A DNA stretch of 64,000 nucleotides from the NCBI GenBank assembly GCA_965208665.1, contig CBDBPH010000002.1, positions 1,163,040 through 1,227,039 on the forward strand, read 5' to 3'. The DNA comes from Dehalococcoidia bacterium. Lineage in GTDB: Bacteria > Chloroflexota > Dehalococcoidia > Bin125. Below are positions 28,884-61,446 of this stretch, piece after piece. Position 1 is the stretch's first letter. Each line of letters begins with the position of its first letter. The position numbers and the translations under genes were made by a program. Under the pieces are notes generated by a model, which saw nothing but the letters and a program-made list of their open reading frames with translations, was not told the origin of the DNA and did not search any database.

Positions 28884-29390
28884 TCACAACGTTGACTCCC
28901 GCACTCTCGGCCTGCCGTCAACCTCGATCATCTCCAACAGCTTCCGCTCGGCGTCACCCCCGGAGATCACCAACTCAATCTCCGACGCCTTCACCGTATC
29001 CGGTTCGTCGCCGTCGTCGATCCGCCACGCGCGCACCGACGGCGGCTCGTCGGCCAGTGAGACCAGCACCCAGTACGGCCACTCCGTCGCGCCCTTATGC
29101 AGCCGAGCGATGTTCAGATCGGTCGGCGAGGGCCGCGCCTCCGAGGCCACGTGCGAGTGATAGATCACCAGCAGGTCACCGTCGACATCGTCAATCGCGT
29201 TGTACAGATGCAGCAACTGCTGCGCAGGAATATTGAATCGCCAGGGCGAGGCCTGATCGTTGGTCGCCCGCCAGAGTGTCATGGCGCCATCGGACCCGCG
29301 CCCGATCACCCCGCAGCATTCGTTTGGCAAGTCCTCGCGCGAGTGGGCGACCATCTCGTCGATCAGGACCTGCGGCAACTCCAGGCTCAT
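28884..29390 (-). CDS. JAMM/MPN+ (Mov34) metalloprotease, Mec-like
   Basis: Has E..ECCG plus HSHVASEARPSPTD, i.e. the JAMM motif HxHx7Sx2D. Confidence 0.85.
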   Translation of the reverse strand: MSLELPQVLIDEMVAHSREDLPNECCGVIGRGSDGAMTLWRATNDQASPWRFNIPAQQLLHLYNAIDDVDGDLLVIYHSHVASEARPSPTDLNIARLHKGATEWPYWVLVSLADEPPSVRAWRIDDGDEPDTVKASEIELVISGGDAERKLLEMIEVDGRPRVRESTL

Positions 29391-30031
29391 GTTCCTGCCG
29401 CCTCCCGCTGCTCTTGCCAGAATGTCCGCTCCGTCTGTGGATGAGGAATCTCCGCGCCCCAGGTGTCCCAGCCGTGGACATCGGCGTCTCGCGCGAATAG
29501 CTCGAGCTTACGTTGGCGTGGGAACATCTCCTCGATCCGGCGCCGCACCTCGACCGGCTTGCGCGAATGCTCCTCGCGCCGTTCCGACACCAGTTGTCGA
29601 ACGTTACGCGCGCCGCGTGGAGCAGGAATCCGGCCACGCTTGAAGACCAGACAAAGCTCGCACTGCGACATCGTGTAGAACCCCGGATTGACCCGCTGCT
29701 TGTCCCAGACGAACGCCACGGTGGCCCACGCGAAACCCCAGGCCTTCCCCAGCTCGATCGCCTGATCCAGATGCGGCGACGTTGCCCACATGAACAGCAG
29801 CGAATCGTCCGCAGCAATCGACTGGACCTCGAGCGCGATTAAGTCCTGTAGCTGCACCGTCTCATAGTGCCGAATCGCCCCACCCGAGTCGCCGCTGCCC
29901 GGCCCGGCATGCTGGAGTTGGCCCTTGTAGTCCCAGGGCGGGTCGGCATAGATGACGCCGTAGCGCTCGTCGCCGTCCGGCGTGGGCAACGGAGGGAACT
30001 CGACCGGCACCGCTACGCCTCGGGAACCCAC
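29387..30031 (-). CDS. MT-A70 family (N6-adenine-type) methyltransferase
   Basis: Has IYADPPWDY (DPPW catalytic motif), LFMWAT and HSRKP. 4-nt overlap with the JAMM start. Confidence 0.85.
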   Translation of the reverse strand: MGSRGVAVPVEFPPLPTPDGDERYGVIYADPPWDYKGQLQHAGPGSGDSGGAIRHYETVQLQDLIALEVQSIAADDSLLFMWATSPHLDQAIELGKAWGFAWATVAFVWDKQRVNPGFYTMSQCELCLVFKRGRIPAPRGARNVRQLVSERREEHSRKPVEVRRRIEEMFPRQRKLELFARDADVHGWDTWGAEIPHPQTERTFWQEQREAAGT

Positions 30032-30393
30032 TCGCGCAGCTCACCGTCATCATGACAGGCCCCGGGCTGCAACGTCATCTGCAGATACGGACGACTCGTC
30101 GACGGAGGGACCAGATGGTCCAGCCAGTGGACACGCTCCGATTCGGGAATCAGCGAGCCGATATCGCCGAATCGCAGGTGGATAACGGTGTCCCCCTCGA
30201 CGATGCCGAAGTCGATCACCGCCTTGCCCGGTTGCATCAGCCGGCCGACCGTGTCGGTGCGCAGGATCTTCGCGCCGCTGTCCGTGTAGCGGCGTAGGAC
30301 CAAAGGAGAGAAATGGACCGGCAGCGCAGATGCATCGCCCGAACTCACGGCTCGGGCGACGGTGCGCTTCCAGACCTGATCGACCTCGGCCAT
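30013..30393 (-). CDS. hypothetical protein (126 aa)
   Basis: ORF with an ATG start that shares 1 nt with the rhodanese stop. Its 3' end overlaps the MT-A70 start by 19 nt. No recognisable motif. Confidence 0.5.
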   Translation of the reverse strand: MAEVDQVWKRTVARAVSSGDASALPVHFSPLVLRRYTDSGAKILRTDTVGRLMQPGKAVIDFGIVEGDTVIHLRFGDIGSLIPESERVHWLDHLVPPSTSRPYLQMTLQPGACHDDGELREWVPEA

Positions 30394-31238
30394 TACGCCG
30401 ATGGATTGTCGATCGGCACGCCAACCACGGAGCCGTACTCGGTCCAGGAGCCGTCGTAGTTCGTCGTGTGGTCGATGCCCAGCAGGTAACGCAGCGCGAA
30501 CCAGCTATGCGACGAGCGCTCGCCGATCCGGCAGTAGGCGATCACCGACTGGTCACCGGTGATGCCCTGCGCCTGGTAGATATCGCTGAGCTCGTCGGCC
30601 GACTTGAACGTGCCGTCCTCGGCCACGGCGGTCGCCCAGGGGATGTTCGACGCGCCGGGCACGTGACCCTTGCGCTGCGCGGTCTCGGGCAGTCCCGGAG
30701 GCGCCATGATCACCCCGTTGAACTCGTCCGGCGAGCGAACGTCGACCAGTTGTCCGCCGGCCTCAACGTGCGCCAGCACGTCGCTCAGACGGGCGCGCAG
30801 CGTCTCATCGCGCTCGGCGACGGCGATACTGCCCGATCCGGCCGAAGGTCCGTCGGTCGTGGTCGCACGACCTTCGGCCAGCCACTTGACTCGGCCGCCG
30901 TCCATCAACGCGGTGTTCGTGACGCCGTACAGCTCCAGCATCCACAGCGCGTACGCCGCGAACCAGTTGTTGTTGTCGCCGAACAGCACGATCTGCGAGT
31001 CATCGTTCGCGCCGGCGCTGCGTAGCAGGTCGGTGATCACCTCGCGGGATGCGACATCGCGCGAAACCTGGTCCTGCAACTGCGAAGTCCAGTTCCACGC
31101 CACCGCTCCCGGCGGGTGCCCCTCGTCGTACGCCGAAGTGTCGACATCGACCTCGATCAGAACCACGTTCGGATCATCCAAGTTGTTGGCGACCCAGTCG
31201 GTCGAGACGAGCTTCTCGGGGTGTGCATAGTCAGCCAT
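30393..31238 (-). CDS. two-domain rhodanese (thiosulfate/3-mercaptopyruvate sulfurtransferase-like)
   Basis: Tandem rhodanese architecture with the active-site loop CRIGERSS in the second domain. Confidence 0.9.
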   Translation of the reverse strand: MADYAHPEKLVSTDWVANNLDDPNVVLIEVDVDTSAYDEGHPPGAVAWNWTSQLQDQVSRDVASREVITDLLRSAGANDDSQIVLFGDNNNWFAAYALWMLELYGVTNTALMDGGRVKWLAEGRATTTDGPSAGSGSIAVAERDETLRARLSDVLAHVEAGGQLVDVRSPDEFNGVIMAPPGLPETAQRKGHVPGASNIPWATAVAEDGTFKSADELSDIYQAQGITGDQSVIAYCRIGERSSHSWFALRYLLGIDHTTNYDGSWTEYGSVVGVPIDNPSA

Positions 31239-31268: not shown

Positions 31269-32228
31269 TCACCACCAGATTTTGCCTTCGATTTCCTCGT
31301 CGCCGGCGATGTCGTCGTATTCGCGGTTCCAGAGGCCGGTGGAGAGGTACTTCCACCCGCCGTCGGCGAGCAGGACCACGATGTTGCCCGAGTCGAGCCG
31401 CTCTGCGGCTCGCTGCGCCGCGCGAATTGCAGCGCCGCACGAGATACCCGCGAAGATGCCTTCCTCTTCGAGTAGCCGTTTGACGACTGCGAAGGACGTG
31501 CGGGAGTCGACCATGATGCGGGCGTCAAGCACCGACTCGTCCAGGACCGGCGGGATGTAGCCCTCATCGAGCGAGCGCAGCCCCTGCACCAGATCGCCGG
31601 GATGCGGCGCAGCCGCGACGATCTTGATCTCCGGGTTCTGCTCCTTGAGATACCGGCCAACGCCGGTCAGCGTGCCGCCTGTGCCGAGACCGGCGACGAA
31701 GTGTGTGATCTCGGGGCAGTCGCGGTAGATCTCCGGGCCCGTCGTCTCGTAGTGCGCGCCCGGATTGGCCGCGTTCTCGTACTGCATCGGCATGAACACC
31801 GACGGATCCGCCTCGTACATTTCCTTGGCCATGCGCACCGCGCCGTTCGAGCCGGTCTCTCCCGGCGAGAGCACGACCTCGGCGCCGAAAAAGGAAAGCA
31901 GATCGCGCCGCTCGACCGAGACCGACTCCGGCATGACGCAACGCACCGGATGACCCGTCAGCCGGCCCATTAGCGCGATCGACAGTCCGGTGTTGCCGGA
32001 TGTCGGTTCAAGGATCGTCTGGCCAGGTCGAAGCGAGCCGTCGGCGTGCGCAGCGTCGATCATCGCCCTCGCGATCCGGTCCTTGACCGAACCGGTTGGA
32101 TTCTGGCCTTCCAGCTTCACCCAGATCGCCACATCAGGATTCGGCGACATCCGCTGCAGTCGGACCAGCGGTGTGTCGCCGATCGTGTCCAGCAAGGACT
32201 GATAGCGGGCGGGCGCGGCCGTGACCAT
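31269..32228 (-). CDS. cysM: CysO-thiocarboxylate-dependent cysteine synthase (CysM-like PLP enzyme)
   Basis: Has KLEGQNPTGSVKDR (PLP lysine), TSGNTG and GTGGT. Sits immediately downstream of, and coupled to, a ThiS/MoaD-like gene, as in the mycobacterial mec-cysO-cysM arrangement. Confidence 0.85.
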   Translation of the reverse strand: MVTAAPARYQSLLDTIGDTPLVRLQRMSPNPDVAIWVKLEGQNPTGSVKDRIARAMIDAAHADGSLRPGQTILEPTSGNTGLSIALMGRLTGHPVRCVMPESVSVERRDLLSFFGAEVVLSPGETGSNGAVRMAKEMYEADPSVFMPMQYENAANPGAHYETTGPEIYRDCPEITHFVAGLGTGGTLTGVGRYLKEQNPEIKIVAAAPHPGDLVQGLRSLDEGYIPPVLDESVLDARIMVDSRTSFAVVKRLLEEEGIFAGISCGAAIRAAQRAAERLDSGNIVVLLADGGWKYLSTGLWNREYDDIAGDEEIEGKIWW

Positions 32229-32506
32229 CAGGTTGCGCCGCCAGCGAGCGCCGGCAAGATCGCGAGCACATCGCCATCGGACAGCGACGTGTCCATGCCG
32301 TCAAGGAAGCGAATGTCCTCGTCGTTCAGGTAGATGTTGACGAAACGGCGCAGTTCGCCGTCTTCCATCAGTTGCTCGCCGATCCCCGGATATGAAGTCT
32401 CCAGCGTGGTTAGCAACTCGCCAATGTTGGCGGACTCGAGTCGCACTTTCTTCTCGCCGTCGGTGAACTTCTGCAGCATCGACGGGACCCGAACTTCTAC
32501 AGCCAT
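32228..32506 (-). CDS. cysO: ThiS/MoaD-family sulfur-carrier protein (CysO-like), C-terminus ...ALAGGAT
   Basis: 92 aa counted from the internal ATG (MAVEVRVPS; GAGAGG upstream). Beta-grasp-like pattern with VNIYLNDEDI and DGDVLAILPALAGG, followed by two extra residues. Confidence 0.8.
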   Translation of the reverse strand: MAVEVRVPSMLQKFTDGEKKVRLESANIGELLTTLETSYPGIGEQLMEDGELRRFVNIYLNDEDIRFLDGMDTSLSDGDVLAILPALAGGAT

Positions 32507-32549: not shown

Positions 32550-33668
32550 CTAGCCTCCGGCGGCGACTGCGGGACCCTCGTGGAACGGCGAGCCGCAGAA
32601 CTCTTCGTAGTCGATCAGTTTGGTCACCGTCGGCGCGTCCCCGCAGAGCGGGCAGCCCGGATCTCGACGAATCTTCACAGTGCGGAAGTCCATCGCCAGC
32701 GCGTCGTACAGCAGCAACCGATTCTTGAGCGGTTCCCCCTGCTCGAGCAGCACTTTGATCGCCTCAGTCGCCTGGATCGCGCCGACCGTCCCCGGCAGCA
32801 CACCGAGCACGCCGGCCTCGGAGCAGGACGGAACCATGCCCGGCGGCGGCGGCGATGGGTACAGGCAGCGGTAGCATCCCTCGCCCGGGAAAAACGTGGT
32901 GACTTGACCCTCGAACAGGAAGATCGAGCCGTCCACCAGGACCTTCTCCGCCAGGAACGCGGCGTCGTTGACCAGGTAGCGGGTGGCGAAGTTGTCCGCC
33001 CCGTTGATGATTACGTCGTACTCCGGGATGATCTCCATCGCGTTGTCCGAGGTCAGCGGCGAAGTGTGGGTGATCACGTTGACGTTCGGATTCATGTCAA
33101 GAATCCGGTCCTTGGCCGAGTCGACCTTCAGCCGTCCGATGTCGGACGTGCCGTGGATGATCTGGCGTTGCAGGTTGGACCGATCAACCACGTCGAAATC
33201 GACAATCCCGATCGTGCCGACCCCGGCCGCGGCCAGGTACACCAGCACGGGAGATCCCAGGCCGCCGGCGCCGACTGCGAGAATCTTGCCGTCGATCAGC
33301 TTGCGCTGACCAAGCGGGCCGACCTGGTCCATGATCAGGTGCCGCGAGTAGCGCTCAACCATCTCCGGCGTCATCACGGTTGGTGCTGGGCCGGCACCGC
33401 CCGCGATCGCGGGAATCACTGCCAGTTCGTCCCCGTCCGCGACCGGCGTTTCGGGCCCGTTCAACGATGTGATCTCGTGATTGTTCACGTAGACGTTGAC
33501 GTGTTCGAGCAGTTCCTGCTCGCCGTCGAAAACCATCTCGCCGAAGCCCGGGAAGCGCTGATCAAGGTCGCGCAGTACTCCGTTGACGTCGATGCCCTCG
33601 GCGTCGACAAAGGTGCGGTTCCCGGTGATCTTCCGAAACGGAGTCGGAATGTAGACCTTCACGCTCAT
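32550..33668 (-). CDS. fusion of an N-terminal ThiS/MoaD-like Ubl domain (ending AIAGG) to a MoeB/ThiF/MoeZ-type E1 adenylyltransferase
   Basis: Residues 1-91 are paralogous to CysO (VNVYVNNHEI, DGDELAVIPAIAGG). They are followed by an APAPT linker, RYSRHL, the nucleotide loop VGAGGLGSP, and zinc CxxC pairs (CYRC, CPLC). There is no C-terminal rhodanese domain. Confidence 0.85.
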   Translation of the reverse strand: MSVKVYIPTPFRKITGNRTFVDAEGIDVNGVLRDLDQRFPGFGEMVFDGEQELLEHVNVYVNNHEITSLNGPETPVADGDELAVIPAIAGGAGPAPTVMTPEMVERYSRHLIMDQVGPLGQRKLIDGKILAVGAGGLGSPVLVYLAAAGVGTIGIVDFDVVDRSNLQRQIIHGTSDIGRLKVDSAKDRILDMNPNVNVITHTSPLTSDNAMEIIPEYDVIINGADNFATRYLVNDAAFLAEKVLVDGSIFLFEGQVTTFFPGEGCYRCLYPSPPPPGMVPSCSEAGVLGVLPGTVGAIQATEAIKVLLEQGEPLKNRLLLYDALAMDFRTVKIRRDPGCPLCGDAPTVTKLIDYEEFCGSPFHEGPAVAAGG

Positions 33669-33690: not shown

Positions 33691-34644
33691 TTAGCTGTCA
33701 GAGAGCGGCATCGACAGATACCGTTCGCCTGTGTCGCAGATCGTCGTCACGACCCGACAATCGGGACCGAGACGTTCGGCGACGATGTTCGCCGCGTACA
33801 CGTTCGCGCCCGATGAAACGCCGCACAAGATCCCCTCTTCGCGCGTCAACCGAAGCATCATCTGCTCGGCATCACGATCCGAGACGCCAATCACCTCGTC
33901 GTAGATCTCGCGGTTCAGGACGCCGGGCACGAACGATGCGCCGATGCCCTGAATGGCATGGACCGAGAACTTGCCGCCCTGCAGTACCGGCGACCGCTCC
34001 GGTTCCACCGCAGTCACCGCCAGGCTCGGCTGACGATCCCGCAGCACTTCGCCGACCCCGGTGATCGTGCCGCCGGTTCCTACGCCGGTCACGAACGCGT
34101 GCAGACGCTCGCCGTCTGGCATCTCGCGACCTTCCAGCGCAGACCAGATTTCCAGGGCCGTGGTCCGTCGGTGGATCTCCGGATTGGACAGATTCTGGAA
34201 TTGCTGCGGCATGAAGTAACCGTCATCCGAGGCCAACTCCTCCGCCGCATACACCGCCCCGGTCATCCCTTCGATCGCTGGCGTCAGCACCACCTCCGCG
34301 CCGAAACGCTCCAACAGTCGTCGCCGCTCGTGTGACATGTCCTCGGGCATGGTCAGAATCAGTCGATAGCCCTTGACCGCCGCAACCAATGCCAGCCCAA
34401 CGCCGGTGTTCCCCGATGTCGGTTCGACGATCACGTCACCCGGCCGCAACGCGCCGCTGCACTCTGCATCGTCGACCATCGACTTCGCGATCCGGTCCTT
34501 GACCGAACCGCCCGGATTGAGGGACTCCAGCTTCGCCACCACCTCGGCTCCGCCATCAGGCACGACCCGATGCAGTCGGACCATCGGTGTGGCGCCGATC
34601 AGTTCAAGCACGGAGTTTGCCAACTGCGGTCGAGTCAGGCTCAA
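33691..34644 (-). CDS. cysK: cysteine synthase A / O-acetylserine sulfhydrylase family PLP enzyme
   Basis: Has KLESLNPGGSVKDR, TSGNTG and GVGTGGTITG. Confidence 0.9.
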   Translation of the reverse strand: MSLTRPQLANSVLELIGATPMVRLHRVVPDGGAEVVAKLESLNPGGSVKDRIAKSMVDDAECSGALRPGDVIVEPTSGNTGVGLALVAAVKGYRLILTMPEDMSHERRRLLERFGAEVVLTPAIEGMTGAVYAAEELASDDGYFMPQQFQNLSNPEIHRRTTALEIWSALEGREMPDGERLHAFVTGVGTGGTITGVGEVLRDRQPSLAVTAVEPERSPVLQGGKFSVHAIQGIGASFVPGVLNREIYDEVIGVSDRDAEQMMLRLTREEGILCGVSSGANVYAANIVAERLGPDCRVVTTICDTGERYLSMPLSDS

Positions 34645-34670: not shown

Positions 34671-35132
34671 CTAGATCTGGTACCGTCCGCCGCTCGGCGC
34701 CCCCAGCTGGGCCGTTTCCGCTGCCAGGTCGGCGATCGTGCGGTCGGCCAGAGTGTTCAAAATGGCGGCACGCACGTCGTCCCAGAGGCGGACTTGCGCG
34801 GCCGCCCCGGTACAGCGCTCCGAGGCTCGCCCGTTCTGCGCGCCGCGTTCCAGGCAGGCCGCCAGCGTGAGCGGGCCTTCGAGCGCCTGAACGACACGAT
34901 CAAGTCGAATCTCCTCGGCCGGCAACGCCAGTTGGTGTCCCCCTTGGGATCCGCGCGCCGAGGAGATGAACCCCGCCGCGCGCAAGCGTCCCAGTACCTG
35001 ACCGGCCAGCGAGCCCGGAATGCCCTGTCGTTCCGCGATCTCCGCCGACGGAATCGGCGCGCCGTCATCGTGCTGCGCCAGATCGACCAGGGCGCGAATG
35101 CCATAATCGCTCGTGGAAGACAGCTTCATCAT
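34671..35132 (-). CDS. Rrf2 family transcriptional regulator (CymR/IscR-like)
   Basis: Has MMKLSSTSDYGIRALVDLA...IAERQGIP...L..L..AG.I.S.RG..GG. Start at ATG 35132/35129 (verified). The upstream part of the track ORF is Ser/Ala junk. Confidence 0.85.
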   Translation of the reverse strand: MMKLSSTSDYGIRALVDLAQHDDGAPIPSAEIAERQGIPGSLAGQVLGRLRAAGFISSARGSQGGHQLALPAEEIRLDRVVQALEGPLTLAACLERGAQNGRASERCTGAAAQVRLWDDVRAAILNTLADRTIADLAAETAQLGAPSGGRYQI

Positions 35133-35250: not shown

Positions 35251-36006
35251 ATGACCACCTCCAGCAGTGCAATCGACGCGACACAGATCGAGGCCGACTC
35301 CCAGCGACTGGCCGATTCACATCCGGCCGACATCGTCGCCGAGGCGCTCGCCCGCTTCGACAACATCACCATCTCATTCAGCGGGGCCGAAGATGTGGTG
35401 CTCGTCGACTTCGCCGCTCGCGAAGCACAGAGACTGGGCCGATCGTTCAACGTCTTCACGCTCGACACCGGCCGACTGCATCCCGAAACGCTCGAATTCA
35501 TCCAGCAGGTGCGCGAGCACTACGACGTGCCGATCGAGGCCTACTATCCCAACGCTGAGGCCGTCCAGGCGTTGGTCCGCGAGAAGGGTCTGTTCAGCTT
35601 CCGCACCGACGGGCACCAGGAGTGCTGCGGAATCCGCAAGGTCGAGCCGCTTGGACGCGCGCTGGCCCATGTCGACGCCTACATCACCGGACAGCGCAAG
35701 GACCAGTCGCCGGGCACGCGCGCCGAGATTCCGGTCGTCCAACTTGATCCCGGGTTCGGTCGAGAGGACGATCCTCTGGTCAAGTTCAATCCGCTGGCCA
35801 ACTGGTCGTCCACTCAGGTCTGGCAGCACATCATGGCCTATGGCGTGCCCTACAACCCGCTCCACGACCAGGGTTTCAAGTCGATCGGCTGCGCCCCGTG
35901 CACCCGAGCCACCCATCCCGGCGAGCACGAGCGAGCCGGCCGCTGGTGGTGGGAAGAGGCCACGCAAAAGGAGTGCGGCCTGCACTCGATCAATCTCGAG
36001 CAGTAG
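35251..36006 (+). CDS. cysH: adenylyl-sulfate (APS)/PAPS reductase, Fe-S type
   Basis: Has the ECCGIRKVEPL (Cys-Cys), CAPC and C-terminal ECGLH motifs. Confidence 0.9.
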   Translation: MTTSSSAIDATQIEADSQRLADSHPADIVAEALARFDNITISFSGAEDVVLVDFAAREAQRLGRSFNVFTLDTGRLHPETLEFIQQVREHYDVPIEAYYPNAEAVQALVREKGLFSFRTDGHQECCGIRKVEPLGRALAHVDAYITGQRKDQSPGTRAEIPVVQLDPGFGREDDPLVKFNPLANWSSTQVWQHIMAYGVPYNPLHDQGFKSIGCAPCTRATHPGEHERAGRWWWEEATQKECGLHSINLEQ

Positions 36007-39323: not shown

Positions 39324-40388
39324 TCAGCGTATCGGCGGCTGCTTCAATCCCGACCCCGTCAACGGCACCAGCACTCGCTCATCCTCGGCCAGCATCCCGC
39401 GCTCCAGCAGACGCCGCAGCGCCGCCAACGGCACCGCCGATGTCGGCTCCACGAACAGGCCGCGCTGCGAGATCGTTGTCCGCGCCAGCTCGATCTCCAA
39501 CTCCGACACGACGCCGGCGGCTCCACCCGTCTCCCGCACAGCCTCCAGCATCTGCGCCAGACGCGGCGGCTGCGCGACCGCGATGCCGTCGGCCATGGTT
39601 GGCTGCGGTTCGCGGGGCTCATGGTTGCGGAAGGCGGAAGCCAGTGGGCTGACATTCATCGCCTGGATCGCGTACAACCGCGGCATCCGTTCGATCCGAC
39701 CCAGTTGTACGAATTCCCGGAATCCACGATGCAGGCCGATCAGCAATGAACCATTGCCGACCGGCAACACGATCGCGTCGGGCAGCCCGTGCTCGGCGAT
39801 CTCCTCGGCGGCCGACTTCATGCCCTCGCAGAAATATGGACTCTGGTTGTGCGAGAGGTAGGGAATGCCCCGTTCCTGGGCATACTGCTCAGCGGCCGCG
39901 GCGACGGCCTCACGGTCACCGTCGACGGAGTGAATGTTGCCGCCGACGGCGATGATTTGCGCTTTCTTGGTCTCCGAAGCATCGGCTGGGACGAAAATCT
40001 CGGCCGACATCCGGGCCGCGGCGGCGTACGCGGCGAGCGCAGCGCCGGCATTGCCAGATGAGTCCTCGACGAATGCGGACGCGCCGCCGCTCCAGGCTGC
40101 CGAGACCAGCATCGCCGCCCCGCGATCCTTGAACGAACCCGTCGGCGAGAGGAACTCGAGCTTCAGCTCCAACCGCAGGCGCAGCGCGTCAGGCCAGTCG
40201 AAGCTGATTGTCGGCGTATCTCCTTGCCCCAGCGGCAACGGGGTGAGCGGCAGGCGGATGCCGCCCTCCGGCAGCCGCGGATAGTCGATCTCGTAGAGGC
40301 CGCCGCAACTCTCGCAGGAGAGCTCCAACGAGGCCGGCGCCAGGGAGACACAACCGAGACAACTCAGGTGGTGTCGCACGACGGGCAT
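39324..40388 (-). CDS. threonine synthase-family PLP enzyme (short form with N-terminal Cys4 ribbon)
   Basis: Has CLGC...CESCGG, then the LSPTGSFKDRGAA PLP-lysine block and SSGNAG. Confidence 0.8.
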   Translation of the reverse strand: MPVVRHHLSCLGCVSLAPASLELSCESCGGLYEIDYPRLPEGGIRLPLTPLPLGQGDTPTISFDWPDALRLRLELKLEFLSPTGSFKDRGAAMLVSAAWSGGASAFVEDSSGNAGAALAAYAAAARMSAEIFVPADASETKKAQIIAVGGNIHSVDGDREAVAAAAEQYAQERGIPYLSHNQSPYFCEGMKSAAEEIAEHGLPDAIVLPVGNGSLLIGLHRGFREFVQLGRIERMPRLYAIQAMNVSPLASAFRNHEPREPQPTMADGIAVAQPPRLAQMLEAVRETGGAAGVVSELEIELARTTISQRGLFVEPTSAVPLAALRRLLERGMLAEDERVLVPLTGSGLKQPPIR

Positions 40389-41578
40389 CAGGCGAAGAAC
40401 TCTCTGATGTCGTCGATCAGCAGGTCAGGCACCTCCATCGCCGGGAAGTGCCCGCCCTCGCGGAACTCCGTCCACTGGACCACGTTGAAGGCGCGCTCAC
40501 ACCACGACCTGGGCGGCAGCGGCGTGCCTCGCTTGAGCTTGACGAAGCCGGCAGGCACATCCGTGCGCGCTCCCTCACGCAATCGCACCTGACCGCCGAT
40601 TTCCGCCTCAACCTCCGCCGGCGGCCGCATCGCCTCGTGGTAGATCCGCATTGCCGACGACTGCGTCCGCGTGAACCAGTAAATCGCCACGGTCGCCAGC
40701 AGCTCGTCCTTCGAAAAGCGTCGATACAGGTCGCCGCCTCGCGGCTGCTCGTCTTCCCGCATGATGTCGGCCAGGATCCACCACTTGTCGACGATCCAGG
40801 CCAGCAGACCGACCGGCGAATCCTCAAGGTGAAACGCCATCGTCTGGAACTTGGTGCCATGAATGCCGCGATGCGCAGCGTCGTCGCGGACGTACGGTTC
40901 CTGCTCATCGACGAAGAACCGTTGCTCCACCTCACTCTGTGGAGCAGCCGCTGATCCGCCCGGAGCCAGCGCGGCCATCGTCATGTGGATGCGGGGGATC
41001 CGGTCGGCATGCCGTAGCGCGAGCTGTCCGCCGATGGCCGCGCCCCAATCCCCACCGTGGTACAGGAACTCGTCATAGCCCAGCCGCGACATCAGCTCGA
41101 CCCACATGTCGGCAATCGCCGCCGGACCCAACCCGCCCTGTCGCGGAATGTCCGACCAGCCGTAGCCGGGCAACGACGGCGCGATCACATGGAACGCAGG
41201 AGCGTTTGGATTCGCCGGTTCGGCCAACTCGTCGATGATCTTGTGGAAGTCGTAGACCGTCGAAGGCCAGCCATGCTGGATCATCAGCGGTCGCGCGTCG
41301 CGTCGCGGACTGCGCCGATGAATGAAGTGAATCCCCAGCGACTCGCCATTCCAGGCGGTCAGCGACGCCTTGAATTGGGGAAACCCGTTGAGCAGCGACT
41401 CAATCGAACGCCAGTCGAACTCGTCCGTCCAGTAGTCGACAAGATCTTGCGTGAAAGCAAGGTCGATGCCGTACAGCCAGTCAGATCCGGGAACCTCACT
41501 CAACCAGCGCGCGTCGCGCAGGCGCCGTCGAAGCTCGCTGATCTCGGACTCAGGGACGGCGATTTTGTACGGCTCCAC
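40388..41578 (-). CDS. epoxide hydrolase (EH N-terminal domain plus alpha/beta hydrolase), paralogue 1
   Basis: Has PYKIAVPESEISELRRRL..ARW and HGWPS, with HGGDWGA around the nucleophile. Start set to the GTG at 41578, 5 nt after GGGAGG. The upstream track extension covers the REP hairpins. Confidence 0.85.
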   Translation of the reverse strand: MEPYKIAVPESEISELRRRLRDARWLSEVPGSDWLYGIDLAFTQDLVDYWTDEFDWRSIESLLNGFPQFKASLTAWNGESLGIHFIHRRSPRRDARPLMIQHGWPSTVYDFHKIIDELAEPANPNAPAFHVIAPSLPGYGWSDIPRQGGLGPAAIADMWVELMSRLGYDEFLYHGGDWGAAIGGQLALRHADRIPRIHMTMAALAPGGSAAAPQSEVEQRFFVDEQEPYVRDDAAHRGIHGTKFQTMAFHLEDSPVGLLAWIVDKWWILADIMREDEQPRGGDLYRRFSKDELLATVAIYWFTRTQSSAMRIYHEAMRPPAEVEAEIGGQVRLREGARTDVPAGFVKLKRGTPLPPRSWCERAFNVVQWTEFREGGHFPAMEVPDLLIDDIREFFA

Positions 41579-41623
41579 CGTTGCCTCCCTCTGCCTATGA
41601 ACAATCGATGCCGCCGCGCACGC

Positions 41624-41683
41624 ACGGGCGACCACAAGGGTCGCCCGTACAGAGAGTTGTAGGGGCAGGCCTTGTCCCTGCCC
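41624..41683. repeat. two REP-like GC hairpins between epoxide hydrolase genes
   Basis: 41624-41648 is ACGGGCGACC-ACAAG-GGTCGCCCGT (10-bp stem). 41663-41683 is GGGCAGG-CCTTGTC-CCTGCCC (7-bp stem). Confidence 0.7.
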
Positions 41684-41718
41684 GCGCGCGATGCACAATT
41701 CCCCGCTTAACTCCCCGC

Positions 41719-42876
41719 TTAACGAAGAGGCCGGAAGAAGTCCCGAATGTCCTGCACCAACAGATCCGGCTCCTCCAGCGCGGCGAAGTGACCGCCCTTC
41801 TCATGCTCCGACCACTGGGTGATGTTGTAACCCGGCTCGCACCAGCTGCGCGGCGCAGTGATGATTTCCTTGGGGAAGATCGAGAAACCGGTCGGCGTCT
41901 CGAGTCGGCCCGGCAGGAAGTTCTCGGCCTGGTTCTGGCGCATCTCGTAGTAGTAGCGGGTCGACGAGTTGATCGTCTGGCCGAACCAGTAGATCGAGAT
42001 GTTGGTCAGGATCTCATCCTTGGTGAAGCGCTTCTCGATATCGCCGTCGCAGTCCGACCACGACCGCCACTTCTCCGTGATCCAGGCGGCCAGCCCGGCC
42101 GGCGAATCGGTCAGCCCGTATGCCAGCGTCTGCGGCTTGGTCCCCTGGATCGCCTGGTAACCCGTCTCCTGGGCCTGCCAGTGCGCCATCTGCGCCGCGA
42201 CCTCTCGTTCCCGGTCGGTCCATTCCTCTTGCGGCTTGTCCTGCGGCGGACGACCGATTGGCATGTTGATCTGCGCGCCGACGCAGTTGTCCGGGTGCTG
42301 GTAGGCGACCTGTGCGGTCACAATCGCGCCCCAGTCGCCGCCCTGCGCTCCGTACTGCTCGTAGCCGAGCTGCTCCATCAGCGCGCCCCAGAGCAGCGCG
42401 GTCCGCTTCTGACCGAAGCCGCCCGACGTCGGGATCTGCGAGAACCCATAGCCGGGGATCGACGGCGCGACCACGGTGAAGGCGTCGGCCGGGTCGCCAC
42501 CGTGCGACGCCGGATCGGTCAAGGGCCCGAGGATCTTGACCACCTCGTAGAACGTGCCCGGCCAACCGTGAGTGAACACCAACGGCAGCGGGTTCGGTCC
42601 GTTGCCTTCCTGGTGCACGTAGTGAACCGTGTAGTCCTCGACGCCGTCTGCAGACACCTGCGTCGTGAACTGCGGGATGCGATTGAGATACGTCTCCTGG
42701 ACGCGCCAGTCATAGCCGGTGCGCCAGTATTCACAGAGCTCCTGCATGTAAGCCAGGTTCGAGCCGTACTGCCAGCCGGAATCGCTCACTTCCGAGGGCC
42801 AACGGGTCTGCGCCAACCGGCGCTTGAGGTCGCGGATATCGGTGTCGGACACATCGATCTTGAATGGTTCGGGCAT
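41719..42876 (-). CDS. epoxide hydrolase, paralogue 2
   Basis: Has MPEPFKIDVSDTDIRDLKRRLAQTRWPSEV, HGWPG and GGDWGA. Collinear with 46601-47758. Confidence 0.9.
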   Translation of the reverse strand: MPEPFKIDVSDTDIRDLKRRLAQTRWPSEVSDSGWQYGSNLAYMQELCEYWRTGYDWRVQETYLNRIPQFTTQVSADGVEDYTVHYVHQEGNGPNPLPLVFTHGWPGTFYEVVKILGPLTDPASHGGDPADAFTVVAPSIPGYGFSQIPTSGGFGQKRTALLWGALMEQLGYEQYGAQGGDWGAIVTAQVAYQHPDNCVGAQINMPIGRPPQDKPQEEWTDREREVAAQMAHWQAQETGYQAIQGTKPQTLAYGLTDSPAGLAAWITEKWRSWSDCDGDIEKRFTKDEILTNISIYWFGQTINSSTRYYYEMRQNQAENFLPGRLETPTGFSIFPKEIITAPRSWCEPGYNITQWSEHEKGGHFAALEEPDLLVQDIRDFFRPLR

Positions 42877-43144: not shown

Positions 43145-46100
43145 CTAGTCGTTGGGCCTGGCCGCGCGCGTATGCGACCACTCCGCCTCGCCAGCCTGGT
43201 TCATGGCCCAGCCGTTGGCGGTCTTGGCGCGGACTTGCACCTCGTAGCGCGTGCCCGCGGTGAGATCCTCGATCTCGTAACTCCTGGGATTCCAGCACAT
43301 GTTGTGGGAGCACATGCGGCGCGTCGATCGGGGGAAGAGCTCGTCGCTCGTGGTCCAGGCGGTGGTTCCCGACTCCCGGTGACGTACCTCGTAGGCGTAC
43401 GCCGGCGAGGCGCTGTCGGGCTCCTCCCACTCGACGATCAGCGACTCGCTCTCCCCGGGCGTCACCGTGACATGCACCGGGATGGCCGTGTCGGTCTGAT
43501 CGGCCGCCAGGGTGACGGTGACGATCTCCGAGGTGAAGCCCAGTATGGGCGTGTCGGTGGTCATCGGGTCGTCGTCGTCGCCGTCGGCGCGGCCCTGGAC
43601 GCGGACCTGCCAGGTGCCGTTTGTCAGCCCGGTAAAGGTATGCGAGCTGTCGGTCGCCGCCTTCTGGACACCGCTCGTCGGCCAGGCGGCCCAGGTCTTG
43701 TCCGCGTTCTGCTTGCGGTGCTCGACAAACCAGGCGTCAAGGCTGCCGACGATACCCGAAGTGCTGGCGCCATGCCAGGCGACCACCAGCTTGCCGTTCC
43801 CGCCGGACGCGGCCACCTGGGGCGCCCCCGGCCCGGCGGTATCGCCTTCATAGTCCGACGACTGCACCACCGCGCCATCAAGCGTGTACGACGCCCTGAT
43901 TGAGACCTCGCCTTCAGCTTCCGGGGAGACCAGGCTGCCGGGCGGGCAATTGATTTCACCGGATTCGCCGTCGTCTTCGTAATTGCAGACCGTGTTCTGG
44001 TCGATGTTCTTGTTGGTCTGGGCTTCGATCCACACGCGGCCAAGCAGACCCGACGGGCCGGTGCCGAACCAGATCTGGGTCGGCTCGAACCAGGTCCTGA
44101 CGGCCGGCGTCCAGACCGACCAGGCGGTGGTGGCGGTCGAGGCGGGTTGGCTGCTCAGGTGAGTTTTGGCGCCGACGCGCGCCGACCAGTAGAAGTCGCG
44201 AGTCAGGTTGGTGAGGCGGTGGAATGTCTCAGAAGCGTCTGGGGTCTCGGTACTCTTGAAGCCGGCGCATTCCGTCGCGACCCTGGCGTTGGGACATGGC
44301 TGGTACTCCACGACAAGATTGACCAACGTCCGTCCCGTCGGCGCAGTGTAGGCATTCCACAAGACGACCATGTTGCCGTGATTGTTGGCCAGCGTGCGCA
44401 CGCCCGTGGGGCTGTTCGCGTCGGCGGTCGCCGAGGGATCCTGGGCGTTGAGCGTGATGCTCTGGGTGCTGGTCGTGTACTCGCTGTCGGAGGCGTCGTA
44501 CGCGCGGATGCGGAAGTCGTAGCTGACGTAGGGCTCCAGCAGGTCGTAGGCGATGAAATCAGGCTGGCCGGCGTCGGACTGCGTGCTGATAAGCGACCAG
44601 GGGAATCGGCCGTAGCTGTACCAGTAGTCGTCCACGGAGCGTTTGAACTCGAAGCTGAACATCTGGCGAGTCACACAGCCGGTGCCGTTGACGCTGGTGA
44701 TCTTGCCGCTCACGGCGTTGAAGGCGTACGGCTTGACCGCCAGCGAAATGCAGGCGTCCGGCACGTTGTTCGCTTCCATCGTCACGAGGTCTTCGGATGC
44801 GCCGTCGGCGTACTCGACCCGGACGGCGAAGGTGTAATCGCCCGGTGTGAGGCCGCGCATGGTGTGCGAGCGGGCTTCGGGGTCGGGAATGGTGGCATCG
44901 AGGCTGAGGCCCGCCGCCTCGTTGGCGGCGCTGACGACGAAGCCGGTCACCTCGCAGGCGTCGGACATGTCGCTGGGCAGGGTCCAGGAGACGACCGCTC
45001 CCTGGCCGATGGTCAGGGCCGAGACGGAGGACGGCGCGACCGGGTCGCAGGCGTGCGCCTGTTGCCAGTCGACCTGGTGAGCGCTGTCATGCGTCAGGCC
45101 CTGGTGCACGAGCAAGGCGGCGCTGCCCGACCCGGCGGCCGCAATCGTCCCGCCGTTGAGCTTGAGGGTGTTGGCCAGCACGGCGACGCCGCCGGTGGAG
45201 AGGTTGGGTTCAACGACGGTGTGGGCGAAGGTCAGCGCATTGGAACCGGAGCCGGCCTGGTAGGCAGCCCACCTGGTTCCCCAGTCGGCCGGGTCCATGT
45301 CGATGGCGATCTGCGGCGTCCCACTGACCGTCACGGGTTCGCTGAACGCGACCGACACCTCGATCACGTCGCCTTTGGTATAGGTGTCGTCGTCGCCCGG
45401 GTCGGAGGTGATCGCGACGGCGAGCACGGTCGGCGCGGAGGCCTGCCAGTTGACCTTGTGGTTGGCGTCGTGGGCGAGTCCGGCGTGCGCGCGCTGCACA
45501 TCGGTGGTGGAGGAGACCGAGCGGATCGTGCCGCCGTTGAGCTTGAGGCTGTTGGCGAGCACGGCGACGCCCCTGGTCGAGATGTTGGGTGCGACAACGG
45601 TGTGGGCGAAGGTCAGCGCGGTGGAACCGCTGCCGGCGGAGTACCAGGCGCGCTTGACGCCGTAGCTGGGGTCCATCTTAATGTCCACCCTCGGCGTCCC
45701 GCTGACGTTGACCGCCTCGCTGAAGGTCAGCGTCACCTGGATCGCGTCGCCCTTGCGATAATTGTCGTCGTCGCCCGGATCGGAGGTGATGGCGACGCCG
45801 GTCACGGTGGGGGCGGTTGCCTGCCAGTTGACCCTGTGATTGGGGTCATGGGGGAGTCCGGCGTGTGAGAGCGCGGCGGCCGCTCCGGCGGAGGCAGAGG
45901 TGATCGAGCCGCCGTTGAGCGTCAACGAATCGGCGAGCACGGCGACGCCCTGGGTGGAGATGTTGGGTTCGACGACCTGGTGCGCGAAGGTCAGCTGGGT
46001 CGATCCGCTGCCGCTCGAGTAGGCGGCCGGCTTGGTTCCCCAGTCGGCCGGATCCATGTCGATCGAGACTTGCGGCGTGCCGGAGACGTTGACGGCTTCG

Positions 46101-46324
46101 CTGAAGGTGAGGGTGACGCGGACGTGGTGTCCAAGGGCATAGGTCTGGTCGGGTCCGGCTTTGGAGCTGATGGCGACTGAGGTGACGGTCGGCGCGGTCT
46201 GACCTTGCACGGCCGAACTGCCGACCAGTAGGGCGAGGAAGACGAGTAAGACGAAGCCCGTGTGCGCGAGGGCCGTCCGGCCCGCGAGCCCATACGCTCG
46301 ATAAAGCTTGAGATCAACGCGCAC
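43145..46324 (-). CDS. large secreted/cell-surface protein: signal anchor, 3 tandem ~127-aa Ig-like repeats, then several FN3-like beta-sandwich modules
   Basis: 1059-aa ORF. N-terminal hydrophobic signal FVLLVFLALLVGSSAVQG. Three repeats starting APTV(T/L). The C-terminal segments show FN3-like W...Y.V.V.A patterns (for example YEVRHRE...TRYEVQVRA). Confidence 0.8.
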   Translation of the reverse strand: MRVDLKLYRAYGLAGRTALAHTGFVLLVFLALLVGSSAVQGQTAPTVTSVAISSKAGPDQTYALGHHVRVTLTFSEAVNVSGTPQVSIDMDPADWGTKPAAYSSGSGSTQLTFAHQVVEPNISTQGVAVLADSLTLNGGSITSASAGAAAALSHAGLPHDPNHRVNWQATAPTVTGVAITSDPGDDDNYRKGDAIQVTLTFSEAVNVSGTPRVDIKMDPSYGVKRAWYSAGSGSTALTFAHTVVAPNISTRGVAVLANSLKLNGGTIRSVSSTTDVQRAHAGLAHDANHKVNWQASAPTVLAVAITSDPGDDDTYTKGDVIEVSVAFSEPVTVSGTPQIAIDMDPADWGTRWAAYQAGSGSNALTFAHTVVEPNLSTGGVAVLANTLKLNGGTIAAAGSGSAALLVHQGLTHDSAHQVDWQQAHACDPVAPSSVSALTIGQGAVVSWTLPSDMSDACEVTGFVVSAANEAAGLSLDATIPDPEARSHTMRGLTPGDYTFAVRVEYADGASEDLVTMEANNVPDACISLAVKPYAFNAVSGKITSVNGTGCVTRQMFSFEFKRSVDDYWYSYGRFPWSLISTQSDAGQPDFIAYDLLEPYVSYDFRIRAYDASDSEYTTSTQSITLNAQDPSATADANSPTGVRTLANNHGNMVVLWNAYTAPTGRTLVNLVVEYQPCPNARVATECAGFKSTETPDASETFHRLTNLTRDFYWSARVGAKTHLSSQPASTATTAWSVWTPAVRTWFEPTQIWFGTGPSGLLGRVWIEAQTNKNIDQNTVCNYEDDGESGEINCPPGSLVSPEAEGEVSIRASYTLDGAVVQSSDYEGDTAGPGAPQVAASGGNGKLVVAWHGASTSGIVGSLDAWFVEHRKQNADKTWAAWPTSGVQKAATDSSHTFTGLTNGTWQVRVQGRADGDDDDPMTTDTPILGFTSEIVTVTLAADQTDTAIPVHVTVTPGESESLIVEWEEPDSASPAYAYEVRHRESGTTAWTTSDELFPRSTRRMCSHNMCWNPRSYEIEDLTAGTRYEVQVRAKTANGWAMNQAGEAEWSHTRAARPND
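45056..46195 (-). repeat. three in-frame tandem coding repeats (~381 bp each) inside the 1059-aa gene
   Basis: Residues 44-170, 171-296 and 297-423 align end to end (TFSE.V.VSGTP, SGSGS..LTFAH.VV.PN.ST.GVAVLA, LNGG.I, H.V.WQ). Confidence 0.85.
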
Positions 46325-46600: not shown

Positions 46601-47758
46601 TTAGCGCAACGGTCGGAAAAACTCGCGGATGTCCCCGACCAGCAGCTCCGGCTCCTCCATCGCGGCGAAGTGTCCACCGCGATCATGCACCGACCACTGC
46701 TGCACGTTGTACTCCGCCTCGACCCAGTGCCGCGGCGGCCCGAAGATTTCCTTTGGGAAGACCGAGAATCCGGCCGGCGTCTCCAGCCGACCCGGCAGAG
46801 AGTTCGCCTGATCGTGCTGTCGGCGTTCGTAGTAGTAGCGCGTGGCCGAGTTCATCGTCCTGGTAAACCAGTAAATCGAGATGTTGGTCAGGATCTCGTC
46901 CTTGCTGAATCGCGTCTCAATGTCGCCGTCGCAGTCCGACCACGACCGCCACTTCTCCACAACCCAGGCCGCCAAACCCGCCGGAGAATCCGTCAATCCA
47001 TACGACAACGTCTGCGGCCGAGTCCCCTGGATCCACTGGTAGGCCGCCTCCTGCGACAGCCACTCCCGCATCCGAGCGACAAACGCACGCTCCTCGTCGC
47101 TCCACGCCTCCTCGGGATGGTCCGCCGGCGCCGGACTGTTCGGCATGTTGATCTGCGCGCCAATGCAATGCTCCGAGTCTTCATACGCGGTCAGCGCCGA
47201 GACCCGCGCGCCAATGTCGCCGCCCTGCGCTCCATAACGCTCAAAGCCAAGCTCCGACATCAACGCCACCCACATCCGAGCCGCCCGCATATGCCCGAAC
47301 CCGCCACTGCTGGGTATCTCCGAAAAGCCGTATCCGGGCAGCGACGGAGCGACAACCGTAAACGCATCAGCCGGATCGCCACCATGCGCACCGGGATCGG
47401 TGAGCGGCCCCAGGATCTTCGAAACCTCAACGAACGATCCCGGCCAGCCATGAGTGAAGACGAGCGGCAGCGGATCCGGCCCAACGCCCTCCTGCAGCAC
47501 GAAATGAACGCTGTAATCCTCGACCCCGTCCGCCGACACCTGCGTCGTGAACTGAGGCATCCGGTTCAGTCGAGCCTGCTGGGCCGCCCAGTCAAACTCC
47601 GTCCGCCAGTACTCGCAAAGCTCCTGGATGTAACCCAGGTTCGACCCGTACTGCCAACCTGAGTCCGCCACCTCCGACGGCCACCGAGTCTGCGCCAGCC
47701 GACGCCTCAGGTCCCTGACCTCTGCGTCCGGAATGTCAATCGTGTACGGCTCAGGCAT
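46601..47758 (-). CDS. epoxide hydrolase, paralogue 3
   Basis: Has MPEPYTIDIPDAEVRDLRRRLAQTRWPSEV, HGWPG and GGDIGA. Same length (385 aa) as paralogue 2. Confidence 0.9.
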   Translation of the reverse strand: MPEPYTIDIPDAEVRDLRRRLAQTRWPSEVADSGWQYGSNLGYIQELCEYWRTEFDWAAQQARLNRMPQFTTQVSADGVEDYSVHFVLQEGVGPDPLPLVFTHGWPGSFVEVSKILGPLTDPGAHGGDPADAFTVVAPSLPGYGFSEIPSSGGFGHMRAARMWVALMSELGFERYGAQGGDIGARVSALTAYEDSEHCIGAQINMPNSPAPADHPEEAWSDEERAFVARMREWLSQEAAYQWIQGTRPQTLSYGLTDSPAGLAAWVVEKWRSWSDCDGDIETRFSKDEILTNISIYWFTRTMNSATRYYYERRQHDQANSLPGRLETPAGFSVFPKEIFGPPRHWVEAEYNVQQWSVHDRGGHFAAMEEPELLVGDIREFFRPLR

Positions 47759-47809: not shown

Positions 47810-48052
47810 CTAGCTCTCGACCACGTCTCCGGCGACCGGGTCGATGCGCACGCCCTTGGCCTCGACCCAGGCGAGCGCGCGGTCGATCTCATCGTGGTCG
47901 CCATCGAGCTCCAAAACCACCCAGCCGAAGTCATGCTCGACATCGGCCATCCGGATATTGGTCACCACGTCAAACTCATGCCCGACGAGATAGATCACCG
48001 GTTCCTTGACCGCGTCGCCCTCGAACGTGAAGCGGACTCGTCGGGTCGCCAT
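47810..48052 (-). CDS. NIL-domain (ferredoxin-fold) small protein
   Basis: 80 aa. Has VRFTFEGDAVKEPVIY.....F.V..NI..A........G..VLEL.G......AL......GV, as in the NIL domain of MetN-type proteins. Lies 2 nt downstream of the thrC-like gene. Confidence 0.7.
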   Translation of the reverse strand: MATRRVRFTFEGDAVKEPVIYLVGHEFDVVTNIRMADVEHDFGWVVLELDGDHDEIDRALAWVEAKGVRIDPVAGDVVES

Positions 48053-48054
48053 CG

Positions 48055-61353: not shown

Positions 61354-61446
61354 TGATGCGCTCCCTCCGTCGAGGGGGAGGAAGTGAGCAGGCCCGAACC
61401 CGGCCGACTCGCCCTCTCCCGTGCCGCGCGGGCTGGACGTCACGTT

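Follow-up and report, generated by a model that had tools for sequence, protein, structure and literature searches.

How can a ubiquitin-like (Ubl) sulfur carrier be used when its di-glycine lies inside a longer protein and is followed, in the same chain, by an activating enzyme (E1) of the kind that acts on such carriers? The question is raised by a gene in a 64,000-nt stretch of DNA from a Dehalococcoidia bacterium (GenBank assembly GCA_965208665.1, contig CBDBPH010000002.1, positions 1,163,040 to 1,227,039 of the forward strand), which was analyzed as a whole and is referred to below as the window; all coordinates of its features are positions in it. The gene (32550–33668, minus strand) encodes a CysO-type carrier fused to a MoeB/ThiF-type adenylyltransferase, and its operon also codes for a free CysO, a CysM-type cysteine synthase and a JAMM metallopeptidase. 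As argued below, the fusion is probably a precursor, which the JAMM protein of the operon would cut after Gly91 to yield a carrier and an E1.

The 372-amino-acid product is specified by one uninterrupted open reading frame (ORF), which starts with an ATG at 33668, with GAGAGGA ahead of it, and ends with a TAG codon at 32550–32552. Residues 1–91 (33396–33668) are a CysO/SAMP1-type β-grasp sulfur-carrier domain whose last residues, 87–91, read AIAGG. They are followed by a linker, AGPAPTV (residues 92–98, 33375–33395), with the predicted JAMM cleavage site between Gly91 and Ala92, and by a rhodanese-free E1 of the MoeB/ThiF type (residues 99–372, 32553–33374), which opens with MTPEMVERYSRH. The junction thus reads ...DGDELAVIPAIAGG-AGPAPTV-MTPEMVERYSRH.... 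Pfam assigns residues 5–91 to ThiS (PF02597; E-value 8e-14, 52.4 bits against a cut-off of 22.5) and residues 107–340 to ThiF (PF00899; E-value 1.5e-78). The best PDB match of the carrier domain found by phmmer is Mycobacterium tuberculosis CysO (3DWG_C, E-value 2.8e-14); the alignment extends from residue 1 to residue 91, and G90-G91 of the fusion fall on the terminal Gly-Gly of CysO. An AlphaFold2 (AF2) model of residues 1–95 alone is a β-grasp fold with a pLDDT of 89 and with disorder confined to residues 90–95. When this model was compared with known structures by Foldseek, the closest were those of CysO (4N6E_B, 3DWG_C and 3DWM_A; TM-scores of 0.85–0.90, root-mean-square deviations of 1.4–1.9 Å), followed by SAMP1 (TM-score of about 0.8), MoaD and Urm1. 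The N-terminal domain thus belongs, by its fold, its profile and the position of its di-glycine, to the CysO subgroup of the ThiS/MoaD β-grasp carriers. In the full-length AF2 model (pLDDT 85), residues 88–94 score below 50; they are the sole low-confidence stretch between the domains and the only one in the N-terminal half of the model.

The E1 part contains the RYSRH motif with the Arg finger, the VGAGGLGSP motif, two CxxC pairs (CYRC and CPLC) and an invariant loop cysteine, Cys282. It passes the NCBIfam model of the MoeB subfamily (NF004281, 277.8 bits against a cut-off of 266), and, among solved structures, those of E. coli MoeB and ThiF are nearest to it (E-value 2.4e-54 for MoeB 1JW9_B; Foldseek TMt of 0.93–0.95 to ThiF 1ZUD and MoeB 1JW9). 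The score with the NCBIfam MoeZ model is far below its cut-off (380 bits against 647), since the E1 part has no rhodanese domain: the match stops at position 284 of the 392 positions of the model, and Pfam finds no rhodanese in the fusion protein. The initial annotation of this DNA, made from the letters alone, had described a β-grasp carrier, an internal di-glycine, a short linker and a rhodanese-free E1 in this ORF and, in the same gene string, a separate double rhodanese, a JAMM gene and a free CysO paralogue beginning 43 nt downstream; profile, structure and motif comparisons bear out all of these readings. The fusion itself ends with ...AAGG, but this was rejected as a second functional di-glycine, being common to the closest relatives only and not conserved. 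A free C-terminal carboxylate on the internal Gly-Gly is absent from the gene product, where 281 residues still follow in frame. Since the reading frame runs on past the di-glycine, a free Gly-Gly end could be obtained by proteolysis only.

Before this is given any weight, one has to ask whether the fusion is real. In several related loci of other lineages (L013, L016, L018, L030, L035 and L049), the carrier gene lies just before the E1 gene in the same frame, with one stop codon between them, and so a single base error could create a fusion of this kind out of two ordinary genes by a lost stop or a frameshift. However, both Pfam domains are present in one protein in 119 of the 120 best database homologues, which are drawn from NCBI, ENA, JGI and Logan assemblies and reach down to 64% identity. 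A genome scan with one genome per species retrieved 80 related loci (L001–L080), 14 of which are fused, and five further fused loci were added by exact-protein look-up; the junction is continuous in all 19 of these independent loci. When the database of representatives of 50%-identity clusters was searched with fusion residues 1–135, approximately 57 of the best 150 representatives matched without a break across the junction, the lowest identity being 34%. The hidden stop or frameshift between the di-glycine and the E1, a possibility raised in the initial annotation, was thus looked for and not found, and an assembly or sequencing artefact is rejected on these three counts; the probability that we would still give it is negligible.

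The same comparisons show which part of the junction is conserved. In an alignment of 110 of the homologues, A89, G90 and G91 are invariant, as are the VGAGGLGSP, RYSRH, CYRC and CPLC motifs of the E1, and the carrier ends with AGG in 19 of 19 fused loci; a loss of the di-glycine among orthologues, another possibility that had been considered, was not seen in either set. The distance from the di-glycine to the Arg of RYSRH, on the other hand, varies from 9 to 28 residues among the homologues and the 19 fused loci, and the sequence in between is not conserved. It follows that the di-glycine matters and that the linker does not. Unfused E1s of sister lineages begin 8–20 residues ahead of RYSRH, and therefore an E1 cut after the di-glycine would resemble an ordinary E1.

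In the genome scan, the fusion occurs in at least six phyla: it was found in Dehalococcoidia and other Chloroflexota, a Moorellaceae genome, Gemmatimonadales, an uncultured Bacteroidetes metagenome-assembled genome (MAG) and a Thermoplasmata archaeon. Among genomes, the nearest is that of a Dehalococcoidia MAG (locus L001), with a protein of 95% identity. In a neighbour-joining tree, fused carriers stand at no fewer than three places and their E1 partners differ, with or without rhodanese, so that carrier-E1 fusion probably arose more than once, a tree of 90-residue domains being weak evidence. The fused carrier of the window is 37% identical to the free Ubl encoded downstream (E-value 4e-22). 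The two were rejected as recent duplicates, the same tree placing the free one with the CysO of M. tuberculosis and other actinobacteria and the fused one apart. The fusion is thus real and widespread, and it is annotated simply as "MoeB".

We built profile hidden Markov models of the carrier and of the JAMM protein from the related loci and ran them on all ORFs of the 80 loci. Free carriers of the family usually do not stop at the di-glycine: 22 of 32 continue for 1–7 residues past it, one for 24 residues, and nine end there; the free carrier of L085 has 14 residues past GG. Carriers of this family therefore regularly need to be trimmed behind the GG. Pfam-confirmed proteins in which the same carrier family is joined through GG to other partners comprise carrier-E1-rhodanese fusions (L010, L011, L015 and L023) and carrier-NIL fusions (L031, L037, L047, L049 and L076). 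A JAMM gene lies within 8 kb in 30 of the 42 loci with a carrier versus 1 of the 38 without one (Fisher p = 4e-11), and in 10 of the 14 fused loci. It adjoins the fusion in six loci (L007, L010, L011, L012, L015 and L023) and directly follows CysM in L082 and L085.

Three further comparisons concern the role of the fused domain itself. In five loci (L007, L008, L009, L012 and L023), the fused carrier is the sole carrier of the locus and stands beside a cysteine synthase gene, a JAMM gene or both. Locus L014 has the operon order of the window, yet its carrier, which ends with AGG-AGGRS, and its E1 come from two genes whose stop and start codons overlap as ATGA, which shows that carrier and E1 need not be covalently linked. 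Finally, in ten genomes that have both carriers, mean pairwise identity is 0.55 for the fused carrier and 0.55 for free CysO, compared to 0.73 for the E1 domain and 0.66 for CysM. Since the fused carrier and free CysO diverge equally, the fused domain is no decaying decoy.

From the domain identities, the conserved di-glycine of the junction, the composition of the operon and the comparative pattern, we infer the following route. The operon JAMM would cut the Gly91-Ala92 bond of the 372-residue precursor. One product would be a CysO-type carrier of 91 residues, its Gly-Gly carboxylate now free, and the other an E1 of the MoeB type whose short N-terminal tail resembles that of unfused E1s. The same peptidase would remove the -AT tail of free CysO. 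The carrier or carriers would then be adenylated by the E1, and persulfide sulfur from the separate double rhodanese would be used to form the carrier thiocarboxylate. With it, the M. tuberculosis-type CysM would produce a carrier-cysteine adduct, whose hydrolysis by the JAMM protein would release free cysteine. The fusion would ensure 1:1 synthesis of carrier and activator and would make use of the carrier peptidase-dependent, comparably to ubiquitin fusion precursors.

Several points weigh against this route. The case for cleavage is comparative throughout, and precursor processing is not the only explanation of the co-occurrence with JAMM, since hydrolysis of CysO-Cys by Mec is required in CysO/CysM pathways anyway. 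There is no JAMM gene within 8–10 kb in four of the 14 fused loci of the scan (L002–L004 and L006) and in two others (L081 and L084). In every locus of the lineage that was examined (L001–L006 and L081–L086), a fused and a free carrier are found beside a single CysM, and redundancy is a poor explanation for stable retention of both. CysK, encoded directly upstream, may be a dedicated partner of the fused carrier; the idea is suggested by L007–L009, where a CysK orthologue, the fusion and JAMM occur together without CysM, and weakened by the orthologous loci L082 and L086, which have no CysK.

Some of these points would be explained if the N-terminal Ubl stayed attached as a regulatory or docking module of the E1, a non-carrier, with free CysO as the only true carrier. 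The attached domain could be a pseudo-substrate that plugs the adenylation site of the partner subunit, or it could serve to recruit one of the other proteins (CysM, the rhodanese or the JAMM protein), much as eukaryotic E1s bring in E2s through their ubiquitin-fold domain. In the MoeB-MoaD structure, the Arg finger extends into the active site of the partner subunit; the shortest linkers put 9–14 residues between the di-glycine and this finger, which makes a docked uncleaved state geometrically conceivable. Some fused loci have no JAMM nearby, and a separate free CysO always stands directly before CysM in the lineage of the window, and therefore a second carrier looks unnecessary. Iyer et al. 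argued along these lines in 2006: where a Ubl-ThiF fusion is accompanied by a solo ThiS, they gave the fused domain a role other than that of a carrier (PMC1779556). On the other hand, a Gly-Gly that never varies, with a hypervariable linker behind it, is what marks a C-terminus as processed or activated, and the domain is conserved as strongly as a true carrier. The fused Ubl being the sole carrier in the five loci listed above, and the same Ubl being encoded in L014 as a separate gene with a five-residue tail, also speak against permanent attachment, and a regulatory role specific to the E1 is made less likely by the fact that this Ubl is also joined, by its GG, to unrelated partners, among them the NIL domain. 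We consider a permanently attached module unlikely. Of the two options offered in the initial annotation, cleavage after GG or a non-carrier module, the comparative evidence favors the former, and it is from this evidence that we infer cleavage itself. A related scheme, decidedly unlikely in our view, is that the uncleaved fusion is a working, self-inhibited "zymogen" E1, with the Ubl of each chain docked in the adenylation site of the other chain of the homodimer, and that the JAMM cut both activates the E1 and frees a pre-positioned carrier. If this were true, the peptidase would be the control point of protein-thiocarboxylate sulfur flux, and side-by-side retention of a fused and a free carrier would be explained. 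It is also a possibility, related to these, that the fused carrier serves an acceptor other than that of CysO, e.g., a MetM-like ThrC homologue with its NIL protein (47810–49305).

The operon could, instead, belong to a protein-modifier pathway of the SAMP or TtuB type, in which an E2-independent E1 conjugates the released Ubl to lysines of target proteins and the JAMM protein deconjugates it, sulfur transfer being a minor or second role. Archaeal SAMPs and Thermus TtuB are both sulfur carriers and modifiers. Among the closest NCBIfam models are those of SAMP1 (57.1 bits), the SAMP-activating E1 UbaA (358.8 bits) and desampylase (47.3 bits), and the carrier model resembles SAMP1 structures with the TM-score given above. 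However, the three scores are under the respective cut-offs of 60, 450 and 130, and CysO is the best match in both sequence and structure. The gene context is purely that of cysteine and sulfur assimilation (Rrf2, CysK, CysM, rhodanese and a divergent PAPS reductase), and Pfam reveals no E2-like or target-like gene in the gene string. A modifier pathway is therefore highly improbable. The likeness to minimal prokaryotic ubiquitin-like systems noted in the initial annotation extends to the presence of an E1, Ubl domains and a JAMM protein but not further, given that no E2-like gene was found in the gene string and that the gene set is that of cysteine synthesis by way of sulfur carriers, as with CysO/CysM/Mec of M. 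tuberculosis, rather than that of a minimal ubiquitin-like conjugation system.

The reading of the fusion as a JAMM-processed precursor can now be set against the composition of the whole operon. The minus-strand gene string is tightly packed, with genes overlapping or nearly abutting, in the order Rrf2, CysK, fusion, free CysO, CysM, double rhodanese, 126-amino-acid protein, MT-A70, JAMM, followed by folP and folK; a 3′-phosphoadenosine-5′-phosphosulfate (PAPS) reductase gene (35251–36006) diverges from it. A scan of the gene string for terminators and promoters gave counts no higher than in shuffled sequence. The string is headed by an Rrf2-family regulator (34671–35129, minus strand; Pfam Rrf2, E-value 6.1e-32), whose start was taken at the methionine of MKLSS and which heads the operon in most related loci as well. 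Next comes a classical CysK of the O-acetylserine sulfhydrylase type (33691–34644, minus strand; NCBIfam TIGR01139, 402.9 bits against a cut-off of 351), with CysK enzymes as its best PDB matches. Downstream of the fusion, the free CysO orthologue (32228–32506, minus strand; Pfam ThiS, E-value 1.2e-14) has 92 residues and ends with ...ALAGG-AT, two residues past the di-glycine; its likely start is the ATG at 32506, 43 nt after the stop codon of the fusion.

The start of CysM (31269–32228, minus strand) overlaps the CysO stop. Its best PDB match is M. tuberculosis CysM (3DKI/3DWG_A, E-value 5e-95), with 321 bits versus 252 for the next family, and by this similarity it is likely an M. tuberculosis-type, O-phosphoserine sulfhydrylase-like cysteine synthase with O-phosphoserine and the carrier thiocarboxylate as predicted substrates. 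The two-domain rhodanese (30393–31238, minus strand; Pfam Rhodanese, E-value 8.3e-29, two stretches) resembles 3-mercaptopyruvate sulfurtransferase, with a score under the NCBIfam cut-off. It has the same operon position in L001, L005, L014 and L086 and is likely the persulfide donor that the E1 lacks in cis. The 126-amino-acid protein encoded between the rhodanese and JAMM (30013–30393, minus strand) has no match in Pfam, NCBIfam or PDB. Its position is conserved: homologues are found there in L001, L005 and L014, and L086 has a 125-amino-acid gene at that place; the protein may be an unrecognized component of the sulfur-carrier pathway. The gene for an MT-A70 family methyltransferase (29387–30031, minus strand; Pfam MT-A70, E-value 2e-21) overlaps both the 126-amino-acid gene and JAMM. 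It is present in L001 and absent from L005 and L014 and, since it is also absent from the orthologous loci L082, L085 and L086, it looks like a recent insertion in the operon that probably stands outside the pathway. The gene before folP encodes a Mec-like JAMM/MPN+ metallopeptidase (28884–29390, minus strand; Pfam Prok-JAB, E-value 2.8e-19), whose metal site, E...HxHx7SxxD, is complete (E24, H78, H80, S88 and D91). It is the candidate for three jobs, i.e., cutting the fusion after GG, trimming the -AT of CysO and freeing cysteine from CysO-Cys. Among orthologous loci with the same flanking synteny, L082 and L085 have a compact core of fusion, CysO, CysM, JAMM, folP and folK, to which the rhodanese and the 125-amino-acid gene are added in L086; CysK and MT-A70 are thus optional across these loci.

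How does this system compare with known ones? In M. tuberculosis, CysO is free and ends with its di-glycine, and MoeZ is encoded elsewhere; work by Burns et al. in 2005 is said to have shown that Mec frees cysteine from the CysO-Cys adduct. As in that pathway, the window encodes, together in one gene string, a CysO-family carrier, a CysM matching the M. tuberculosis enzyme and a JAMM protein, and an E1 plus a rhodanese function would supply the thiocarboxylate. Unlike in M. tuberculosis, the E1 of the window is rhodanese-free, a separate two-domain rhodanese is present, the E1 has a second CysO-type carrier on its N-terminus, and free CysO has a two-residue tail.

A precedent for cleavage is provided by MoaD-MoaE fusions. 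MoaX, the MoaD-MoaE fusion of M. tuberculosis, must be cleaved after Gly82 to work, and the cut needs Gly81 (PMC4326299). Linear fusions of the MoaD-MoaE and SAMP1 kinds are substrates of the JAMM proteins DR0402 and HvJAMM1 (PMC8832034). Like the members of this JAMM-processed set (MoaX of M. tuberculosis, DR2607/DR0402 of D. radiodurans and SAMP1-MoaE/HvJAMM1 of H. volcanii), the fusion studied here has a β-grasp carrier N-terminal to a functional partner and a di-glycine at the junction, and it comes with a JAMM/MPN+ protein with an intact metal site. It differs in that the partner is an activating E1 and not the large subunit of a synthase, that the product would be cysteine and not molybdopterin, and that cleavage is a prediction here. 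We rate the system as the CysO/CysM/Mec/MoeZ pathway of M. tuberculosis combined with a JAMM-processed precursor of the MoaD-MoaE type.

Another group of precedents consists of the QbsE/QbsD, HcyS/HcyD and MetO/Mec pairs, in which residues past the di-glycine make a JAMM protein necessary before the E1 can act; free CysO of the window, with its GG-AT end, and 22 of its 32 free relatives are carriers of this sort. In the Qbs and Hcy carriers, the extension is 1–2 residues long. The same length is found in MetO, for whose maturation Mec is listed as required (preprint 10.1101/2024.10.14.618325). On the fused carrier, in contrast to all three, the "extension" is a 281-residue enzyme. Eukaryotic ubiquitin is itself made as an N-terminal part of fusion precursors (polyubiquitin and ribosomal-protein fusions), and a peptidase cut after Gly-Gly ties its supply to that of the partner. 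The parallel is an analogy only, since the partners, the peptidase families acting in vivo and the purpose (sulfur transfer versus tagging) differ.

Ubl-ThiF fusions as such have been reported before. Iyer, Burroughs and Aravind described in 2006 proteins with a Ub-like domain N-terminal to an E1-like domain, called this domain distinct from ThiS and placed the genes in thiamine operons of delta/epsilon-proteobacteria and Firmicutes, with one case, from Pelobacter, adjoining a cysteine synthase gene (PMC1779556). "Ubl-E1-TBP" fusions, said to be shared with bacteria, were mentioned by Makarova and Koonin in 2010 (PMC2948915). The fusion of the window is like these in having a Ubl at the N-terminus of an E1 and a second, solo carrier gene in the operon. 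It is unlike the 2006 fusions in that its domain is a CysO-like carrier of the ThiS/MoaD family with an invariant di-glycine and in that its relatives are found in cysteine operons with JAMM, mainly in Chloroflexota; no thiamine biosynthesis genes are present among the window ORFs scanned. Full-text literature searches, whose coverage is incomplete, retrieved comparative-genomic mentions and no experimental study of a natural Ubl-E1 fusion. The statement of the initial annotation that this is not a characterized arrangement thus holds for experiments but not for the architecture, which is common and was noted in both papers.

Outside the operon, the window contains a gene for a 416-amino-acid ThrC homologue (48055–49305, minus strand), directly followed by one for an 80-amino-acid NIL-domain protein (47810–48052, minus strand). 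Homologues of this pair are located beside a CysO-family carrier (free or as a Ubl-GG-NIL fusion), an E1 and usually a JAMM gene in at least ten loci from several phyla (L005, L013, L014, L031, L037, L047, L049, L075, L076 and L080). This association suggests that the ThrC homologue may be a homocysteine synthase of the thiocarboxylate-dependent MetM type and the NIL protein its accessory, and it agrees with the MetM/MetO thiocarboxylate route to homocysteine that was described recently (preprint 10.1101/2024.10.14.618325). No carrier gene adjoins the pair in the window, and only two carrier domains, the fused and the free one, are present in its 64 kb. A role of the fused carrier as the MetO-type partner of ThrC/NIL is nevertheless not supported: L005 and L014 have a third carrier beside ThrC-NIL, and the carrier of the fused clade, fused in L005 and encoded by a separate gene in L014, is present in addition to it. 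The C-terminal GVGG of the ThrC homologue was rejected as functional, since it is not conserved in 10 homologues. A second ThrC-like enzyme, dependent on pyridoxal phosphate and 354 amino acids long (39324–40388, minus strand), scores below all NCBIfam threonine synthase cut-offs.

Inspection of the related loci also showed that rhodanese, carrier and E1 modules have been shuffled into several orders across lineages. Three-domain carrier-GG-E1-rhodanese proteins (L010:7986–9434, L011, L015:7992–9485 and L023:5906–7417, in locus coordinates) have a JAMM gene immediately upstream of each and are hosted by Gemmatimonadales, a Bacteroidetes MAG and a Thermoplasmata archaeon. Many related E1s have an N-terminal rhodanese (L025, L029, L030 (8271–9521), L035, L045, L050 and others), and a separate carrier gene lies just upstream of the rhodanese-E1 gene in L025, L029, L030 and L035. 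The carrier-GG-NIL fusions (L031 (3008–3535), L037, L047, L049 and L076) match Pfam NIL with an E-value of 4e-14. The carrier also matches the N-terminal half of a Thermus "MoaD related protein" of 165–168 amino acids (PDB 1V8C), which may share the carrier-NIL architecture.

Elsewhere in the window, two cobalamin riboswitches (61452–61572 and 63743–63950, minus strand; 42 and 89 bits) lie upstream of a 1512-amino-acid ORF (56905–61443) and a 434-amino-acid ORF (62354–63658), and there are two tRNA genes on the plus strand (54505–54575 and 54600–54673). Three paralogous epoxide-hydrolase-like genes combining EHN and alpha/beta hydrolase domains (40388–41698, 41719–42876 and 46601–47758, minus strand) surround a gene for a 1059-amino-acid protein containing fibronectin-III domains (43145–46324).

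The carrier-E1 fusion is a predictable variant of known systems, the architecture having been known since 2006/2010 from comparative genomics. If it is cleaved as proposed, it would be the clearest prokaryotic case of a Ubl whose precursor includes the enzyme that activates it and is processed by a JAMM protein, and the logic would be the same as that of eukaryotic ubiquitin fusion precursors and deubiquitinases, employed here for sulfur transfer. The family is large, as judged from the cluster representatives, and its phyla include one archaeon. With four or five proteins, the system is compact and easily reconstituted, and it lends itself to the study of how JAMM proteins recognize Ubl junctions. 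Pathway predictions that look for a free CysO-type carrier would need to be corrected if the proposed maturation is true. The system also bears on whether precursor processing regulates the synthesis of cysteine, and perhaps of homocysteine, in Chloroflexota and other poorly studied groups.

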